From an uncultured Verrucomicrobiota bacterium (GTDB lineage: Bacteria > Verrucomicrobiota > Verrucomicrobiia > JABWAM01): DNA of 64,000 nucleotides. The translations under genes were made by a program, and so were the position numbers. Shown piece after piece: positions 3,736 through 52,318 of this stretch. Location: assembly GCA_964475835.1 (NCBI GenBank), contig CAYYYL010000002.1, forward strand, positions 49,910 to 113,909, given 5' to 3'. How positions within the stretch are numbered: the stretch's first letter is position 1; each line of letters opens with the position of its first letter. The notes under the pieces were generated by a model. It saw only the letters and a program-made list of their open reading frames with translations, did not search any database and had not been told where the DNA came from.

Positions 3736-5160
3736 ATGTCTGAACAACAACCCTCTATTCCTCCCTCGCCAAAACCGGAGTCGAATTCCTCCAGTGCTCC
3801 TTATCAGGGTAAACCCGATCGCCATGGGGGACGAAGGGGGCACCATCGTGGGCGTTGGCGTCGATTCCGTCCGCACCGGGAAGAAATTCGTCAGGAGCCA
3901 CCCCCGGAATCCCTCAATCTCGCGGACTGGATGGATCTTGCGCCCGAAGTGTTGGAAGCCAGGGCGAGGGAAAATGGATTGGAGTTGAAATCGGGAATTT
4001 CGATGGAGCAATTGCCCCGGGAATTGGTGCGTGCGCAGGCTGCCAAACTCGCTTTGATCATGGTGGAGGGAACGCTTGAATTGGGAAAGGGAGGAGGGGG
4101 ATTCCTTCGGTCCAGCGAAGTGAGCTATCAGTCACGCCCGGTGGACCCTTATGTTTCTCCCCCTTTGATCAAGCGGTTTGCACTTTTGCCGGGGGATTTT
4201 GTAAGCGGACTTGCCCGACCTCCCCGGGATCGGGAGCGTGGACCGAACTTGTTGAATGTCGACCTGATCTGGAATCAACCTCCCCAACGGATTCAGGGAC
4301 GGAAGGCGTATGATGAACTCACACCCCTCTTTCCTCAAAAGCGTCTGGTTCTGGAAAATGGCCCGGCTTCCGTCAGTATGCGTGCCCTGGACCTGTTGGC
4401 TCCCTTGGGTCGGGGGCAGCGCGCCTTGATCGTGGCCCCCCCCAGGGCTGGGAAAACCATTCTACTCCAACAGGTGGCGGAGAGCATTGAAGCCAATGAT
4501 CCGGATGTAACGGTTATCGTCCTCCTTCTCGATGAACGCCCTGAGGAGGTTCACAACATGAAGCGGGTGGTGAAGGGTGAGGTCGTCGCAAGCACCTTTG
4601 ATGAAACCGTGGACCGGCATGTGCGCGTTGCGGATCTTGTGATGGAAAAAGCCCACCGGCTTGTCGAAAACGGACGTCATGTGGTGGTTCTGATGGATTC
4701 CTTGACCCGCCTTGCCCGAGCGTGCAACGCCCTTTCCCCCTCCCGCGGGAAATTGATGTCGGGAGGCGTGGAATCGGGAGCCCTGGCAAAACCCCGGAAA
4801 TTTTTCAGCGCAGCTCGGAATACGGAGGAGGGTGGGAGTCTTACCATTGTAGCCACGGTCCTCGTCGAAACAGGAAGCCGGATGGATGACATGATTTTTG
4901 AGGAGTTCAAGGGGACGGGCAATATGGAGGTCTACCTTAGTCGCGATCTCCAGGAGCGGCGGATCTATCCTGCCATTCATATCGAAAAAAGCGGGACCCG
5001 CCGGGAAGACCTCCTGTATCATCCCGATGAGTTGATCCGAATTCAGGCTTTGCGTCGTGCTTTATCCGAGCACCCCCCCTTGGAAGCCATGGAAGAATTG
5101 ATCGGACAGCTCAAGGCAACAGGGTCAAATGCCGAGCTCCTCATGCGATTAAAACTTTGA
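3736..5160 (+). CDS. rho: Transcription termination factor Rho (with an N-terminal basic/low-complexity extension)
   Basis: 474 aa. The Rho ATPase core is conserved: the Walker A APPRAGKT motif, the [11 protein letters not shown]-loop region, and the C-terminal RREDLL. The start is 2 bp after the coaE stop, so the two genes are probably co-transcribed. Confidence 0.95.
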
Positions 5161-8064: not shown

Positions 8065-10710
8065 TCAGCCAACGACCAGGTTCACAAGTTTCCCGGGAAC
8101 GATGATCCACTTTCGAATGGTCTTATCCTTGATGGAGTCCTGGACGCGTGGGAGCGCTTGAATCTTCTGACGGAGTGTCGCTTCGTCAAGTTCCCGGGGG
8201 ATGCGGAGTTTTTCCCGTAACTTGCCATTCACTTGCACGACCATTTCCACTTCGCTTTCCACGAGATGTCGCTCGTCGTAGGGGGGCCATGCCTCGTAGG
8301 CCAGGGTGTCCGTTCCTCCCGTTTTCTGCCAGAGTTCCTCTGCGAGATGGGGGGCAAAGGGTGCGAGGAGAAGGAGGAAGGGTTGAACGATGCGACGGGG
8401 ACGATTGTTCCACGTCATGGCTTCATTCACAAAGACCATCAAGGCAGATATGGCGGTGTTGAATGCCATGCCGTCGAGATCAAGGGTCACTTTTTTAATG
8501 GTCTTGTGCAGAGTGATCCATTGCGCTGCGGTGGGTTCAGCGTTGGAGATTAGGGGGTGCAATCGGATGTGGTCCATCGCGGAAGCAGCCTTGCCGGGAT
8601 CATTGCCAATCAGGGTGAGTTCCTGATCGAAGTCCTCAACACTCGATTCGTCTGTAAACAAGCGCCAGACACGACCGAGGAAACGATAGACTCCTTCCAC
8701 ACCGTCCATGCTCCAGGGTTTGGTTTGTTCAAGGGGTCCCATGAACATTTCATAAAGTCGCATGGCATCGGCGCCATATCCGGTGATCACGGTGTCCGGA
8801 TTGACAACATTTCCCCGGGATTTGGACATTTTTTGACCGTCCTCTCCGAGAATGAGCCCTTGATTGACAAGTTTGCAGAAAGGTTCCGGGGTTGGGACAT
8901 GTTTCAGGTCGTAAAGAACCTTGTGCCAGAAACGTGCGTAAAGGAGATGGAGCACGGCATGCTCGGTGCCGCCGACATAGAGATCGACGCCACCCGTTTT
9001 TTGATCCTGCCCCGCGGACAGCCAGTAGGTGGATTTTGCCTGGTCACAAAACATGGTGTTATTTTGTGGATCAAGATAGCGAAGATAGTACCAACAAGAT
9101 CCCGCCCACTGAGGCATGGTATTGAGTTCGCGTTGGGCTCCATCAGAAAGGCGAACCCAGTCACCCGCTTTGGAAAGCGGGGGTTCTGTGGTCCCTGTGG
9201 GTTTGAAATCGGCCAGTGCGGGCAATTCCAGCGGCAGATCGCTGTCGGACAGGGGGTGATGCTTCCCTTCTTTCCAAACGATGGGAAACGGTTCCCCCCA
9301 ATAACGCTGTCGGGAAAAAAGCCAATCACGAAGTTTATATTGAACCGTGGGGGTTCCGAGGCCCCGTTCGGAAAGCCATTCAGTGATTTTCTTTTTCGCA
9401 TCCGCCGTGGTAAGTCCGGTGATGGGGCCTGAGTTGATGCTGGTGCCATCGCCGGAGAAACACGTTTCACTGGGAGAACCCCCTTTGACGACCTGGATGA
9501 CCCTCAGGCCATATTTTTGGGCAAACTCAAAGTCCCGGTCATCGTGAGCTGGAACGGCCATGATAGCACCGGTTCCATATCCCATCATCACATAATCGGC
9601 GATCCAGATGGGAATGGCTTCATTGTTGACGGGATTGATGGCATAAGCGCCTGTAAAAATGCCTGTTTTATCTTTGGCCAACTGCCGGTCCTGGTCCGAC
9701 TTGGACGCGCAGCCCTTTTGGTAGGAAAGCACCGCGGTACGTTGGTCCTCGGTGATGATCTGATCCACAAGAGGGTGTTCGGGGGCGAGCACCATAAATG
9801 TCGCGCCAAAGAGCGTGTCGGGACGAGTTGTGAAAACTTCAACTTTGGACGTTGCCCCTTGAACCTTGAACTCCACTCTGGCTCCTTCGGAACGGCCAAT
9901 CCAGTTGCGCTGAAGCAATTTAATGCCCTCTGGCCAATCCACCAGATCAAGTTCGGAGATCAGTCGGTCCGCGAAACTGGTGATGCGTAGCATCCATTGG
10001 CGCATGGGGCGACGTTCTACGGGAAATCCGCCCACTTCACTCTTTCCATCCACAACCTCCTCATTGGCAAGAACCGTGCCGAGTTCGGGACACCAGTTCA
10101 CAGGGACTTCCGCGACATAGGCAAGACGGACCGAGTCCGGGTCCTTTCCCTTGTAGGTGTCGATGGGCTCGGCCCTCCGGGTTGCGGGGTTAAACCAGGA
10201 GTTGTAGATTTTGAGAAAAATCCATTGAGTCCAGTGGAAGTATTTGGGATCGGTGGTGTCGACTTCCCGTTCCCAGTCATAACTGAACCCGAGGGCTTGG
10301 ATTTGCCGTCGAAAGTTGGTAATGTTGGTTTCCGTGGTCAACCGTGGATGCTGTCCAGTTTTGATGGCGTACTGCTCGGCGGGAAGGCCGAAGGCATCCC
10401 ATCCCATGGGATGGAGTACGTGTCGCCCCCTCATTCGTTGATAGCGGGCGAGAATGTCCGTCGCGGTGTATCCTTCCGGATGTCCGACGTGAAGCCCGGC
10501 GCCCGAGGGATAGGGGAACATGTCGAGGATGTAGTACTTGGGAGCGTAAGGAGTGTCAGGAGTAGGAGCGTTGGCTTTGCCGTGACGCTTTCGAAATGGG
10601 TGATTTTCGGGCAGAGGGGTCCCCGGATCAAAGGCGCGAAACGTCCGGCCTTTCAGCCATGCCTTCTGCCACTTCGGTTCGATCAGATGAAACGGATATT
10701 GTTTGCGCAT
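8065..10710 (-). CDS. leuS: Leucine--tRNA ligase
   Basis: Class I aaRS with the [16 protein letters not shown] motif and KMSKS (QKMSKSRGN). The ORF track offers a TTG at 10725. The ATG at 10710 ([18 protein letters not shown]) fits the usual LeuS N-terminus better. Confidence 0.95.
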
Positions 10711-10811
10711 GAAAATGCTCCGCAAAGCTTTTTAAATCGGATGAAACAAAGCTTTTCAGGAGTTGTGACGATATTGTATTTTTTGGGGAGGATGCAAGTT
10801 CGATGAAGTTC

Positions 10812-11085
10812 GAAGCTATCTCATGAATAAAGTGGGTGGCGCGAAAGGCTGTTTTGGCCGAATCCAAGGCGACGAGGCTGGAGAATCCCCTCAGTGGGCT
10901 TTGACTGCCGAGTCAACGCTGGAAGCGGCCAAAATAGCCATCGCCCAAAGGGTTGCGCAGCTTTTGGGCGGCGGCGGCGTTGCGCTCGCGCTCCGAGATC
11001 GCTGCGGATATCGCAGCGACTCGCACGCTTGGCCGACGCCCAAAATTTGCAGCAACGCCACCCATTTTATTCATGAGACAGCTTC
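10812..11085. repeat. 274-bp element bounded by 30-bp imperfect inverted repeats (28/30 matching) with a palindrome-dense GC-rich core. It may be a MITE-like insertion or a structured regulatory/ncRNA element.
   Basis: The left arm (10812-10841) is gaagctatctcatgaataaagtgggtggcg. The right arm (11056-11085) is cgccacccattttattcatgagacagcttc, and its reverse complement matches the left arm at 28 of 30 positions. The core holds several hairpins: ttgactgccgagtcaa (10901-10916), cgcccaaa...tttgggcg (10943-10970), and tcgctgcg-gatat-cgcagcga (10999-11019). Both arms contain TCATGA, and the rdgB start codon lies inside the right arm. Confidence 0.6.
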
Positions 11086-11693
11086 TTATTCTGGCTACGG
11101 GCAACGCCCACAAGGCTCGTGAATTTGCAGAAATGCTTGGTTCATGGGAGGTTCTTACGTTGAAGAACATTGGTTTCCAGGGGGATATTCTCGAGAATGG
11201 ACGAACGTTCGAAGAAAACGCCCAAATCAAAGCGGCATCCGTAATGGATTTTCTGAAGCAAAATCCGGTTTGTGGTGGGGGAGTCTCCGTGGTTTGTGCG
11301 GACGATTCGGGGCTTGAAGTGGATCATTTGGGGGGGGCACCCGGGGTTCTTTCCGCCCGATTCGCCGGGATCCCGTCCAATGACGCTGCCAACACGTCGA
11401 AACTTCTGGAAGCACTCGCGGGTGTTGCGGGTGTGAACCGGACGGCGCGATTTCGTTGTGTGATCGCAGCTGCAACGCTGGGGATGAATGCTCCCGAAAA
11501 AATATTTTCAGGGTCTTGCGAGGGAAAGATAGGATTCCAACCCAAGGGGACCCATGGATTTGGGTATGACCCTGTGTTTTTTCCAGAGGGATTTTGTCAT
11601 ACTTTTGCCGAAATCCAGTCGGACGAAAAAAACCGGATCAGTCATCGATCCAAGGCTGTGGCGGCGTTTAAAAAGTGGCTTCAAACCTTATGA
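11073..11693 (+). CDS. rdgB: Non-canonical purine NTP pyrophosphatase (dITP/XTP pyrophosphatase, RdgB/Ham1 family)
   Basis: The protein reads MRQLLILATGNAHKAREF..., with GFGYDPVF and the C-terminal HRSKA, all typical of RdgB. The ORF-track start at 10953 adds 40 residues of GC-rich repeat-element sequence. The ATG at 11073 is preferred. Confidence 0.85.
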   Translation: MRQLLILATGNAHKAREFAEMLGSWEVLTLKNIGFQGDILENGRTFEENAQIKAASVMDFLKQNPVCGGGVSVVCADDSGLEVDHLGGAPGVLSARFAGIPSNDAANTSKLLEALAGVAGVNRTARFRCVIAAATLGMNAPEKIFSGSCEGKIGFQPKGTHGFGYDPVFFPEGFCHTFAEIQSDEKNRISHRSKAVAAFKKWLQTL

Positions 11694-12232
11694 AATTCAC
11701 CCTCCTCCTTTCGATATGGTTGGGTTTGGCGTTAACGCTCCTGGCACGGGATTTTCCGAACAAGGGGAAGGAGGACATGTATCTCATGTACATGAAGTTC
11801 GCTTCTGACAGTAAAATTGAAGGAACGCGTCTCCGGGATCGGGCGAAACACGAGCCCGAGGATCTGGCAGCTCTGGATAAGGAAGGGGCCGAACTTTGTT
11901 TTAAAGATGCTGAGCTGGCGGAGAAGGCTGCTATGGCGGTGAGGAAGGCGAATTTTCGGGATAAAAAAGAAGCCGACCTGGCCCATGAGGAAATTCTTGA
12001 GAAGAAGAAGGCTCTTGCAAAGCGGATCGAGGAGTTGAAGCGATCGAAAGTCGCTAAAAAAGAACCTCCGAAGGTGGATCCTGTAAATTCCAAAATCGCT
12101 GCAACCCCAGAACCCCTTCGTGAAGGAGAGGTGGAGATGGGGGAATATGGGGAATATGCCCGGACGCCCGAGGAAGTGGATCGTTGGTTGAAGGAGGAGG
12201 ACATCAAACCGAAGCCTGTTTCAGACAGGTGA
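11690..12232 (+). CDS. Secreted K/E-rich coiled-coil protein of unknown function
   Basis: Signal peptide MKFTLLLSIWLGLALTLLA followed by a highly charged, helical low-complexity body. The start ATG overlaps the rdgB stop (ATGA), which suggests translational coupling. Confidence 0.5.
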   Translation: MKFTLLLSIWLGLALTLLARDFPNKGKEDMYLMYMKFASDSKIEGTRLRDRAKHEPEDLAALDKEGAELCFKDAELAEKAAMAVRKANFRDKKEADLAHEEILEKKKALAKRIEELKRSKVAKKEPPKVDPVNSKIAATPEPLREGEVEMGEYGEYARTPEEVDRWLKEEDIKPKPVSDR

Positions 12233-13624
12233 GATAGGCTGGGATGGGGGGAGAGAGTCCACCGCCTGGGGAAGGAGGAATCCAAAGTCCTGAGCGATTT
12301 GTGTCAGTCCTTGTTGTTGCCGCATCGTTTTGGGAGGTGGGATGTTGAGTTCGTAGGCTGCCTGTTTCGAAATACGATGGGCCTGTGAGACGGGTAGCCG
12401 TTCGTAGTGCTGTAGAATCTGATAGACAAATTCCGGATCAGAAGACTGGGCCTGTGCCATCCCGAATGGGAGAATCACATTGGTCACGATTTCCAGCCAG
12501 CGATCCCGTCCTAAAAGTGAAACAGGTTTTCGCAATACCGTTCCATTCCGGGAGTATCGGAACGACCAGAATGCGTGGGTGATTTTTGGAGGAGAAAGAT
12601 GGTGGGGGAGGTCCGTAAGGATTTGCAGGAACCAGGCGGCAACGCACGGATGGGGGTGGGTGAGAATGGCCAGGGCCGCCAGGCGTCGCTGGGGGTGATT
12701 TGCGGGTCGAACCTGGGCGAGACGAAGAGGATGTCTCGCCCCCTCGGAAAGGAGAATTTCAATTCGGTCCTCGAGAGAAGTTTGTTGTGTTAGCTTTTTC
12801 CAGGATTGACGGCGGGCGATTTCACGAAAGGCGAATTTATTGTGCTTGTAACCGAGTGCTTCACTCAGAACCTGGTAGGCAGTTTGAGAGGGATCAACGT
12901 CATCCATTTCCTTTCGAATACGTGCCGCTTTTTGCTCGAGTCGATAGACCCCTGCAGATTCCACCTGAAGGAGAATCTCGTCCCTGGTAAGGTGGCTGAG
13001 CCATTTTTGTGGCTGCACCCGGGTCGGGGGCATGGGATAACGATCGGGATCAAGGGATTCCAGGAGTTCGCCTAGAGAGGATTGCAAATAAGGATGCAAT
13101 GCCAATTGAGGAACCACATGGCCCTGGGAGGTTTTGATTTCCTTTGCATCCACTGCCTCCCAAAGTGACACATCCAGGATGACGTGATCATAGGCATGAT
13201 TGAGTGAATGCCGATGATCCTTCCATCCTGTGGAGTGAAGATGAATTTCGACATCTCCCATCCATGTTTGATTTCCGATCCGGATTTTTGCATTTCTGAA
13301 ATCCGGTCCGCCTTCCGAATTCCAGTTGCCGGGTGAAAGAATTTCAAGCGATTCACCGCTTAGGGTTCTTAAGCGATGAGTGTCAAAAATCTGATCGGCC
13401 CAGATGGCTTGAACGAAGCGTTCTGTCAGGGGGATGGGATCGTAAAAGGGTGCGGATTCGCGCAATCGTTGTATGGAGGGGAAGGTTTGCTCGCGAAGCT
13501 GTTGATAGGCAAGGGATGTTGGGGATTCGCTGGGTGAGCCCATGGTGAAGACAAAAGGCGAATTGTTTCCCTTTGGCAACTCCTCTTTTTCAAATTGAAG
13601 GGGGCGAATGATCGTTTGACGCAC
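12221..13624 (-). CDS. Conserved hypothetical protein (DUF2851-like, from memory of that family)
   Basis: 467-aa cytoplasmic ORF. The start may instead be the internal MGSPSES at 13543. Its 3' end overlaps the preceding gene tail-to-tail by 12 bp. Confidence 0.5.
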   Translation of the reverse strand: MRQTIIRPLQFEKEELPKGNNSPFVFTMGSPSESPTSLAYQQLREQTFPSIQRLRESAPFYDPIPLTERFVQAIWADQIFDTHRLRTLSGESLEILSPGNWNSEGGPDFRNAKIRIGNQTWMGDVEIHLHSTGWKDHRHSLNHAYDHVILDVSLWEAVDAKEIKTSQGHVVPQLALHPYLQSSLGELLESLDPDRYPMPPTRVQPQKWLSHLTRDEILLQVESAGVYRLEQKAARIRKEMDDVDPSQTAYQVLSEALGYKHNKFAFREIARRQSWKKLTQQTSLEDRIEILLSEGARHPLRLAQVRPANHPQRRLAALAILTHPHPCVAAWFLQILTDLPHHLSPPKITHAFWSFRYSRNGTVLRKPVSLLGRDRWLEIVTNVILPFGMAQAQSSDPEFVYQILQHYERLPVSQAHRISKQAAYELNIPPPKTMRQQQGLTQIAQDFGFLLPQAVDSLPPSQPISPV

Positions 13625-50872: not shown

Positions 50873-52318
50873 TCAATGGGTGTGACCCTGGCTGGTTGTG
50901 GAGGGGGGGATCGTTGGTTGGGAGGCATCCTGGGAGGTTGCAGGGGCGCTTCGCAATTGCGCCTGGGCATCAATCAGGAACGCGCCCGCAGAAACGATGG
51001 TCTCTCCATCTTCCAATCCTTCAAGGATCTGGGTGTAGTGAGTGGTCACGGTCCCGATCCTTACATTTCGCTGAACAAAGAGACCGCTTTCCTTGCGAAT
51101 ATAGACAACGTGGCGGGTTCCTAGATCGAGGATGGCTGAATTCGGAACACTCAGAACCTGCTCCCCAAGGGGGATTTCCAGGTTGCCTGTCGCGCTTAAG
51201 TTAGGCAGGAGGCGATGATCCTTGTTCGGGACCGTGAAGCGGACAGGAACCGTCCGGCTGTTGGTGTCAATGGCGCGGCTGATGAAGGAAAGGGTTCCGG
51301 GAAAGGTTTCACCAGGAAATGATTTTGTAGTCAAACGGACTTTCTGACCTGTGCGGAGGAGGCCCAGATCGGGTTCAAAAACCTGGCCGTTGAACCAGAG
51401 TTCATCCAGGGGAACAATATGGTAAAGAACCTGGTCGATCTTTGCCAGTTCACCGATGTGCACCATGTTTCCGACGATGGACCCCGAAATGGGAGAGCGG
51501 ATGATGACTTCCGGTTTAGCTGTTTTCTCACTTTTTAATCGTTCGAGATCCTCCGGGGTAAAACCGATACGTTCGAGACGTTCCTGTCCAACGGCGATGA
51601 CCGAATCCAGAAGTTCCCGTTCGTAAAAGGTGCTCATCCAGCGATCCCTTACTGCCCGAAGGTATTCTTCCTGCAATTTGAGGGCTTCGGTGGAATAGAT
51701 GGAGACAAGCGGATCTCCGCGTTTGACTTCGGTTTGATTGAAATCGACAAACTGCTTTTCAATCCTCCCCTCCACAAGGGGGACAATATCCCGATGTTGA
51801 TTCAAATCGTAACCCAAGGTTCCAAAAATCAGCAGCTCCCGCGAAAGTCTGCGTTTTTGAACCTCTTCGGTTCTTACGGCTGCCTGACGAATGCCTTCCT
51901 CGGTGAGCCTTACTTCGGTCATAATCGACTCATGTCTCCCGACCGAGTCATAAACGGGAATAAGATCCATTCCGCAAATCGGGCACTTGCCCGGGTGGTC
52001 GGAATGGATTTGGGCATGCATGCTGCAGGTATAGTGGGTAAGTTTGCGTTCCTGCTTTTCAGGTTGAGGACTTGTCTGGCTGGGAGCGGATTGCATCCGG
52101 ACGGCGACCAGATCCATTCCGCAGATGGGACAGCGGCCGGGTTTTTCTGAGCGGATCTGGGGGTGCATGCTACAGGTGTAGTAGGTGACATCGTTTGTGC
52201 CCTTGGTGGAGTTTGTGGTTGCAGCAGGTGCGTTGGATTGAGAGCAGCCTTGAAGGAGTAGAATCGCGCCCAGCAATAAAAGGCCCACGGAGGATCGGAT
52301 CCAGGGTAAGTTTTTCAT
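50873..52318 (-). CDS. cusB: RND efflux periplasmic adaptor (CusB-like membrane fusion protein), lipoprotein, with two tandem N-terminal Cys-rich metal-binding-like repeats
   Basis: Lipobox LLLQGCS. Two repeats, [25 protein letters not shown] and [25 protein letters not shown], followed by the MFP beta-barrel/lipoyl domains. The ATG at 52318 is preferred over the long ORF-track extension. Confidence 0.8.

Follow-up and report, generated by a model that had tools for sequence, protein, structure and literature searches.

A family of structured non-coding DNA elements in Verrucomicrobiota, one copy of which probably rebuilt the 5′ end of rdgB

The stretch of 64,000 nucleotides analyzed here, referred to as the window, belongs to an uncultured Verrucomicrobiota bacterium (assembly GCA_964475835.1, contig CAYYYL010000002.1) and carries a complete element of 274 bp (10812–11085) between the divergently oriented genes leuS and rdgB. 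Very probably, this element is a copy of a small, non-coding and non-autonomous family of Verrucomicrobiota which resembles miniature inverted-repeat transposable elements, or MITEs, and which in this genome rebuilt the 5′ end of rdgB. MITE-like elements are already known as a type and the family itself is previously undescribed: a text search for MITEs in Verrucomicrobia returned no description of it, and Rfam, plasmid and phage searches revealed no described family with a similar sequence. Its members measure 273–295 bp, within the range of about 50–500 bp typical of MITEs, lack coding capacity, end in terminal inverted repeats, are flanked by target duplications where the copies are young, occur in multiple copies and occupy variable sites, including a disrupted target gene. 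A preliminary description, made from the sequence of the window alone, had left three explanations side by side, namely a MITE-like mobile element, a structured cis-regulatory RNA or attenuator and an unannotated small non-coding RNA. The first of these is supported by copies at unrelated loci, by a genome which harbors many of them, by 4-bp target duplications, by a gene split by the element and by an orthologous site which is empty in relatives.

The element is delimited by its inverted repeat, by its fold on both strands and by its homology to other copies. Its arms, the left terminal inverted repeat at 10812–10841 and the right one at 11056–11085, comprise 30 nt each (arm sequence GAAGCTRTCTCATGAATAAARTGGGTGGCG), are complementary at 28 of 30 positions (93%) and are spaced by 214 nt, in full agreement with the preliminary description. 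Among the local inverted repeats of the 64-kb window, a search ranked this pair as the strongest, and the two well-matched ones that come next in strength (20 nt, 85%; 19 nt, 84%) are situated inside the same element. The arm sequence does not recur elsewhere in the window, the expectation from shuffled sequences being 0.00. Both arms contain the palindrome TCATGA, at 10821–10826 in the left and at 11071–11076 in the right arm, and the right arm additionally holds the present rdgB start codon (11073–11075) together with codons 2–4.

The 274 nt fold into the outline of a Y. The left and right arms, which align with the terminal repeats of the other copies, form the 5′ and the 3′ strand of a closing stem of 28 pairs, on top of which two hairpins of about 105 nt each are separated by a mini-hairpin. 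Hairpin A (10841–10944) contains an apical part, at about 10863–10925, which is, judged from invariant columns, the most conserved sequence of the family as well as of the superfamily described below. Hairpin B (10952–11056) varies in sequence, but compensatory changes maintain its pairing; the 8-bp stem TCGCTGCG/CGCAGCGA around GATAT (10999–11019) that had been noticed previously forms part of it. The mini-hairpin at the junction, CC AAA GG (10945–10951), is conserved across families as GCCC and GGG enclosing 3–4 nt. The plus orientation of the element is defined as the one in which hairpin A comes first. Folding energies amount to −162.8 kcal/mol for the plus strand and −156.7 kcal/mol for the minus strand, corresponding to z-scores of −11.86 and −11.84, respectively, and none of 200 shuffled sequences folded as well. 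With DNA parameters, the fold is worth −100.2 kcal/mol (z = −11.4). Only five of the 108 pairs in the window copy are G-U pairs. The core had been called GC-rich, which holds to a modest degree: the GC content is 58%, compared with 52% for the window. An origin of hairpins A and B as duplicates of one unit was ruled out, the local alignment between them scoring no better than shuffles.

Since gene callers frequently place open reading frames (ORFs) in GC-rich repeats, a spurious ORF of 99 codons on the plus strand (10823–11122) could serve as the handle which uncovered other copies. Run as a protein query, it retrieved 10 database relatives with 48–78% identity, and the contigs encoding them carry the same DNA element of about 274 bp. 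These copies are located in unrelated surroundings. One (L034) is flanked by a hypothetical gene on one side and an FkbH-like gene on the other. A second (L035) takes up exactly the interval separating adk from map within a ribosomal-protein operon, with the adk stop codon located within the left terminal repeat and the ATG of map 4 nt past the right end. A third (L036) occupies the interval between a sigma-70 gene and a phosphoribosyltransferase gene, and the downstream ATG follows 2 nt past the element. In addition, a back-translated scan of species-representative genomes detected nine copies on nine contigs of the metagenome-assembled genome (MAG) ‘Verrucomicrobiia bacterium STC_78’ (JAQUAF01) and one copy in a second Verrucomicrobiota MAG. 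Counting a diverged superfamily copy on contig L045 (2756–3024, minus strand, E = 3.5e-8 with the superfamily hidden Markov model (HMM)), which lies about 950 bp from the main copy, STC_78 harbors at least 10 copies on nine contigs.

Altogether, the window element displays full-length homology to 13 other copies, with E-values from 1e-31 to 1e-100. The length is exactly 274 bp in nine of the 14 copies and otherwise ranges from 273 to 277 bp, reaching up to 295 bp where an extra hairpin is present; the GC content of the copies is 56–62%. The extra hairpin, a mini-hairpin of 16–21 nt with the outline CCCGC...GCGGG, is found in hairpin B of two STC_78 copies (L037, 3981–4275, and L041, 3975–4264) and extends them to 295 and 290 bp, respectively.

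Signatures of transposition are most distinct in STC_78. Its copies have a common 30-bp terminal repeat (GAGGCTCTTGCAAAACTACGATGCTTGGCG; terminal 16-mer GAGNNTSTYKNAAAA), the two ends of a copy being identical or one to two bases apart, and 22–24 of the 24 terminal positions compared match. At six of nine copies, the flanks form a perfect 4-bp direct repeat (TCAT, CTAC, TGGA, TACA, CTTC and CATA), two further copies match at three of four positions and one at two of four; the chance of a perfect 4-bp match is 1/256 per copy. A duplication of this size would imply a 4-bp staggered cut, presumably made by a transposase acting in trans. Moreover, the copy on contig L039 splits a PDDEXK_3 gene, the N-terminal half of which abuts the left edge of the element, whereas profile positions 59–117 abut the right edge. 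The two halves (L039, 3778–4417) are still one base out of frame after removal of the element and one duplication, and the gene is probably a decaying pseudogene.

At the orthologous locus, relatives lack the element. Apart from the window’s own protein, the nearest RdgB proteins are just 56–62% identical, and the organism is therefore devoid of a close sequenced relative. Several relatives have leuS and rdgB back to back as well. The spacers between the two genes measure 27 bp (L005), 45 bp (L032) and about 0 bp (contig of P0006) and do not contain the element. Since the spacers of relatives are short and empty, the element represents a lineage-specific insertion. A longer spacer of 669 bp is found in one relative (L001, 4332–5000) and contains a minus-strand ORF of 64 codons as well as a GC-rich hairpin of 100 nt (4551–4652). 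It was considered as a counterpart of the element and rejected, as its content is unrelated and the fold of the hairpin unexceptional (z = −1.8).

In the window, leuS (8065–10710) is a minus-strand gene whose ATG lies at 10710, and the start codons of leuS and rdgB are 362 bp apart. The rdgB gene, which encodes an NTP pyrophosphatase of the Ham1 family (11073–11693, plus strand), receives its first 13 nt from the element. That the ATG at 11073 in the right arm is the rdgB start codon had been proposed before and is borne out by the match to the Ham1 profile, which sets in at residue 5 when the protein is translated from this ATG. The N-terminus reads MRQL-LILATGN and starts from the ATG of TCATGA in the right repeat.

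Traces of an older start are visible on the other side of the element. The segment directly to its left (10787–10811) consists of GGAGG, 11 nt and ATG AAG TTC, the latter encoding MKF, and to the right, past two bases, follows ATT CTG GCT ACG GGC AAC. Joining both flanks once the element and 2 nt are taken out yields MKFILATGN, which resembles the RdgB N-termini of relatives, MKFLLATSN (L032), MKLILATRN (L005) and MKIILASGN (L001 and L003). Because the ATG AAG TTC to the left of the element matches the N-terminus MKF... of these proteins, the element appears to have landed after codon 3 of rdgB, so that the right repeat now gives the start codon. The insertion had previously been placed in the promoter region, which has to be corrected accordingly: most likely, the element entered rdgB within its first codons, and the start codon was replaced. 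What seems to be the remnant of the ancestral start (10803–10826, plus strand) is a frame of seven codons, MKFEAIS, which runs into the left arm and terminates there at TGA (10824–10826). The present rdgB ATG, 270 nt downstream, shares this reading frame. The GGAGG (10787–10791, plus strand), 11 nt upstream of the putative ancestral ATG at 10803, resembles a Shine-Dalgarno sequence and may have served this start.

The consequences for expression of rdgB can be outlined as follows. A scan of 10400–11400 for sigma-70 promoters yielded no sites. An rdgB transcript begun upstream of the element would have the whole Y fold as its leader, and the start codon in such a transcript would be enclosed in the 28-bp helix of a fold with an energy of about −160 kcal/mol. 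The preliminary notion that pairing of the arms in an mRNA would sequester the rdgB start is thus sound, as the ATG is located within the closing helix. Conceivably, ribosomes translating the remnant frame of seven codons would enter the left arm and could open the helix, thereby exposing the rdgB start. A parallel for such long-range coupling of translation to start-codon exposure is found in RNA phages. Alternatively, rdgB might be weakly expressed, or might be transcribed from an unrecognised promoter inside the element. A regulated switch at the rdgB start is not evident, though pairing of the arms would bury the start.

Beyond the terminal repeats, the entire fold is conserved. RNAalifold calculated on the 14 copies returned the same Y with 102 pairs, 51 of which display compensatory double changes. 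On this structure, 96.6% of the cells are paired, in comparison to 86.1% in shuffled alignments, and none of 500 shuffles reached the observed value; in control structures, in which one side was slid by 1–3 columns, at most 14 pairs had double changes. Pairs with double changes are found, among others, in helix 3 (seven pairs) and in helices 7 and 10 of hairpin B (nine pairs each). The closing stem is nearly wholly different between subfamilies and still complementary, as illustrated by the window (GAAGCTATCTCATGAATAAAGTGGG), the copies L034 and L035 (CAGGGTGTTGAAAAACTATGATGCG, given in the version of L034) and STC_78 (GAGGCTCTTGCAAAACTACGATGCT). Covariation of the terminal repeats could result from co-evolution with a transposase, but hairpins A and B covary in the same manner. 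The most conserved sequence of all, above the termini, is the apex of hairpin A (GGAGAATCCCCnnAGnGGGCTTTGACTGCCGAG).

The same architecture extends into a wider superfamily. A profile of the spurious ORF, run against 1.84 billion representative proteins, matched 111 clusters, the majority of which align only with the part derived from hairpin A. A second, larger family (L047, 10035–10307; L048, 3303–3599, with the same locus in L049–L056) adopts the same Y of about 273 nt with the termini GAGACTGTCTGAAAAATAA, and its ‘ORF’ P0159 has 150 database matches. When both families and the diverged member were folded together, the Y was retained, with double changes in 70 of 104 pairs. Some copies of the second family are also read through in real genes (P0165, P0309, P0142 and P0312 taken together): a DUF5615 domain is split in frame at profile position 22/23, residues 1–69 of RecA are followed by the element, a response-regulator receiver domain continues into the element, and a 23S_rRNA_IVP protein has an element-derived tail. 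A separate protein of 705 residues, P0238, consists of 11 tandem repeats of 64 residues and shows a weak match to that portion of the profile which derives from hairpin A (E = 6.7e-4); possibly, it represents tandem copies of a repeat that is unrelated or only very distantly related.

Neither strand is favoured by the fold. The plus strand is the more stable one in 10 of 14 copies, usually by 2–7 kcal/mol, and both strands fold about equally well. The orientation relative to neighbouring genes is mixed: next to co-directional neighbours, both orientations occur, and copies are also located between divergent and between convergent genes. This lack of strand preference argues against a conventional strand-specific RNA, and is in keeping with selection acting at the level of DNA, of a single-stranded intermediate or of transcripts from either strand. 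Together with the mixed orientation, it leaves the origin of the element as a stand-alone small non-coding RNA, the third of the initial options, without support.

Several observations weigh against an ordinary MITE as the full explanation. No recognisable target duplication flanks the window copy (GTTC on the left, TTAT on the right), and the same is true for the copies L035 and L036. Target duplications are reported to fade in old insertions (PMC10969869), and their absence at these three copies is consistent with such decay. The window copy is indeed old, since its arms match at 28 of 30 positions and no clean target duplication remains. Secondly, the frame of rdgB is restored only by removal of the element plus 2 nt, not plus 4. 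An attempt to rebuild the exact junction before insertion with a 4-bp duplication failed, as only the 2-nt removal gives MKFILATGN, and later small changes must therefore be assumed. Thirdly, the window copy is the sole one in the 64 kb examined of its genome: blastn, single-sequence nhmmer, the family HMM and the superfamily HMM detected no second copy, the best non-self match having an E-value of 0.99. The exact arm pattern of the window had no match in the genome contig collection either, so that mobility within this particular genome is not supported directly. In metagenomes (21 matches) and viral contigs (three matches), this pattern hit one arm only, without extension, which identifies these as chance matches. 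Fourthly, no autonomous element with the same termini was found when matching repeats 200–3500 bp apart were sought in the window and the loci examined; the search returned only the elements themselves. Finally, compensatory changes preserve the internal hairpins, and conservation is higher at the apex of hairpin A than at the termini. A transposase requires only the termini of an element, and plain MITE biology does therefore not explain the internal conservation.

Searches of mobile replicons added no further copies. With blastn, the element gave only chance matches of 28–33 nt on plasmids and nothing in phages, and tblastn of two family ‘ORFs’ against plasmids gave no match. A 21–23-mer, CCACCCATTTTATTCATGAGA, is common to the right arm of the window and to the metagenome contigs L010–L013, L017, L019 and L020, three of which stem from one sample. 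The similarity does not extend beyond this stretch, which is probably a conserved part of some unrelated gene or repeat.

The internal conservation raises the question of whether the Y fold itself might be the functional unit of a widespread and undescribed superfamily. In this case, the element would be moved or kept as folded single-stranded DNA or RNA, recognised via the apex of hairpin A by a dedicated protein, and the termini would constitute the closing helix instead of ends bound by a transposase. We regard this as unlikely, albeit deserving of consideration; if true, bacteria would harbor in this superfamily a novel class of selfish, structured nucleic acids rather than ordinary deletion derivatives of insertion sequences. 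A related and somewhat less probable proposal is that of a functional structured RNA or single-stranded DNA intermediate which has become dispersed. Here, the Y fold and the hairpin A apex would be selected as a protein-binding, processing or catalytic module, with the terminal repeats again serving as closing helix. The very strong covariation, apparent from the share of paired cells and from the double changes at both the family and the superfamily level, speaks in favour of this proposal, as do the length fixed at 273–274 nt and the near-invariant apex, the sole part common to most of the 111 distant clusters. However, neither the frequencies of G-U versus A-C pairs nor the folding energies reveal any strand asymmetry, the orientation is mixed, and DNA transposition is indicated by the 4-bp target duplications as well as by the copies inserted in coding genes. 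Functional bacterial RNAs, moreover, do not typically contain near-perfect helices of 28 bp. Rfam contains no family matching any copy: at E ≤ 1, no match was obtained in 9500–12500, and at gathering score nothing was detected in the whole window or at the 13 loci with other copies, except for one tRNA elsewhere. A selected structured nucleic acid is compatible with the element also being a MITE.

Much less probable is the second of the initial options, a leader or attenuator specific for rdgB, or a structure of the leuS/rdgB promoter, which evolved in place and regulates the start by pairing of the arms. The position of the start codon in the right arm, where it is buried by the fold, would suit such a function. 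The same element, however, adjoins unrelated genes and lies inside genes, and it is missing from the leuS-rdgB spacer of all relatives examined. In addition, a fold of about −160 kcal/mol would seem too stable for a reversible switch. Since the element has no fixed association with rdgB, favours neither strand and occurs in mixed orientation, a cis-regulatory RNA or attenuator is not supported as its origin.

Equally improbable is a palindrome of the repetitive extragenic palindromic (REP)/REPIN type, mobilised through single-stranded DNA by a REP-associated tyrosine transposase (RAYT; Y1/HUH). Richness in hairpins, folding on both strands and dispersal between genes are shared with such palindromes, but insertion of REP/REPIN is generally known not to create direct repeats (see also PMC3184786), whereas perfect 4-bp repeats flank six of the nine STC_78 copies. 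Furthermore, the element consists of 274 bp with 30-bp terminal repeats instead of units of 20–40 bp, and no RAYT gene was seen near any copy, in flanks that were not searched systematically.

Least probable of all is a small protein-coding cassette, for which the conservation of the 99-residue translation with invariant residues in 10 close and more than 100 distant database relatives, and the one frame open in most copies, could be cited, but the variable columns in the 14 copies are spread evenly over codon positions 1, 2 and 3 (47/52/52), neither this ORF nor the 105-codon ORF on the minus strand (10913–11230), which covers the rdgB start and the right-hand part of the element in antisense, has a Pfam match, the second halves of copies differ by indels of 1 nt, all six frames are nearly stop-free (0–3 stops per frame), and base pairing explains the conservation fully. 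Both ORFs are artefacts, as had been suspected, the element is non-coding, and its conservation as ‘protein’ is a by-product of conserved DNA. The more than 100 ‘protein’ clusters in databases accordingly result from translating a palindromic DNA repeat and ought not to be regarded as proteins.

The assignment as a MITE-like element is further illustrated by comparison with known systems. Bacterial MITEs such as Correia/nemis of Neisseria and QMITE2 of Coxiella (PMC10969869, PMC3184786) are alike in their small size, non-coding nature and terminal inverted repeats, in having short target repeats that fade with age, in being multicopy and mostly intergenic, in giving rise to very stable stem-loops in transcripts and in their ability to create gene fusions or new gene ends. 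In contrast to them, the present element is GC-rich (56–62%) rather than AT-rich, has no known cognate insertion sequence and forms a three-way Y with two long internal hairpins under covariation, its internal sequence being more conserved than its termini. As described in PMC3184786 (citing Okstad 2004 and Klevan 2007), the bcr1 repeat of the Bacillus cereus group (about 155 bp) is likewise mobile, flanked by short direct repeats and non-conserved in its genomic distribution, so that both architecture and kind of evidence are the same as here. bcr1 is known to be transcribed, and it differs in the phylum in which it occurs, in size (155 versus 274 bp) and in its direct repeats (5 versus 4 bp), with no evident sequence relationship. 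Insertions of Rickettsia palindromic elements (RPE; PMC10969869) are located in protein-coding genes, where read-through makes them part of the product. Similarly, related copies are read through in the DUF5615, 23S_rRNA_IVP, RecA and response-regulator ORFs, and the window copy supplies codons 1–4 of RdgB. RPE differ in that they measure about 100–150 bp and are mostly in frame, whereas most copies of the present family are found between genes, and a length of 274 + 4 bp is not divisible by three.

With the MITE-like origin as the favoured explanation, the window offers what appears to be a clean example of a MITE rebuilding a 5′ end: the housekeeping gene rdgB would have been decapitated by a mobile element and restarted from an ATG in its terminal repeat, and the likely original ribosome-binding site and start codon can still be discerned 270 nt upstream of the present start. 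The family is apparently widespread in Verrucomicrobiota, and its fold is kept far beyond the needs of an end bound by a transposase. It is thus a good system for asking why some bacterial MITEs, with bcr1 as the known parallel, are selected for their fold.

Elsewhere in the window, a direct repeat of 86 nt with 73% identity is found at 51954–52039 and 52101–52186. The two units are spaced by 147 nt from start to start and probably represent an internal duplication in a gene.

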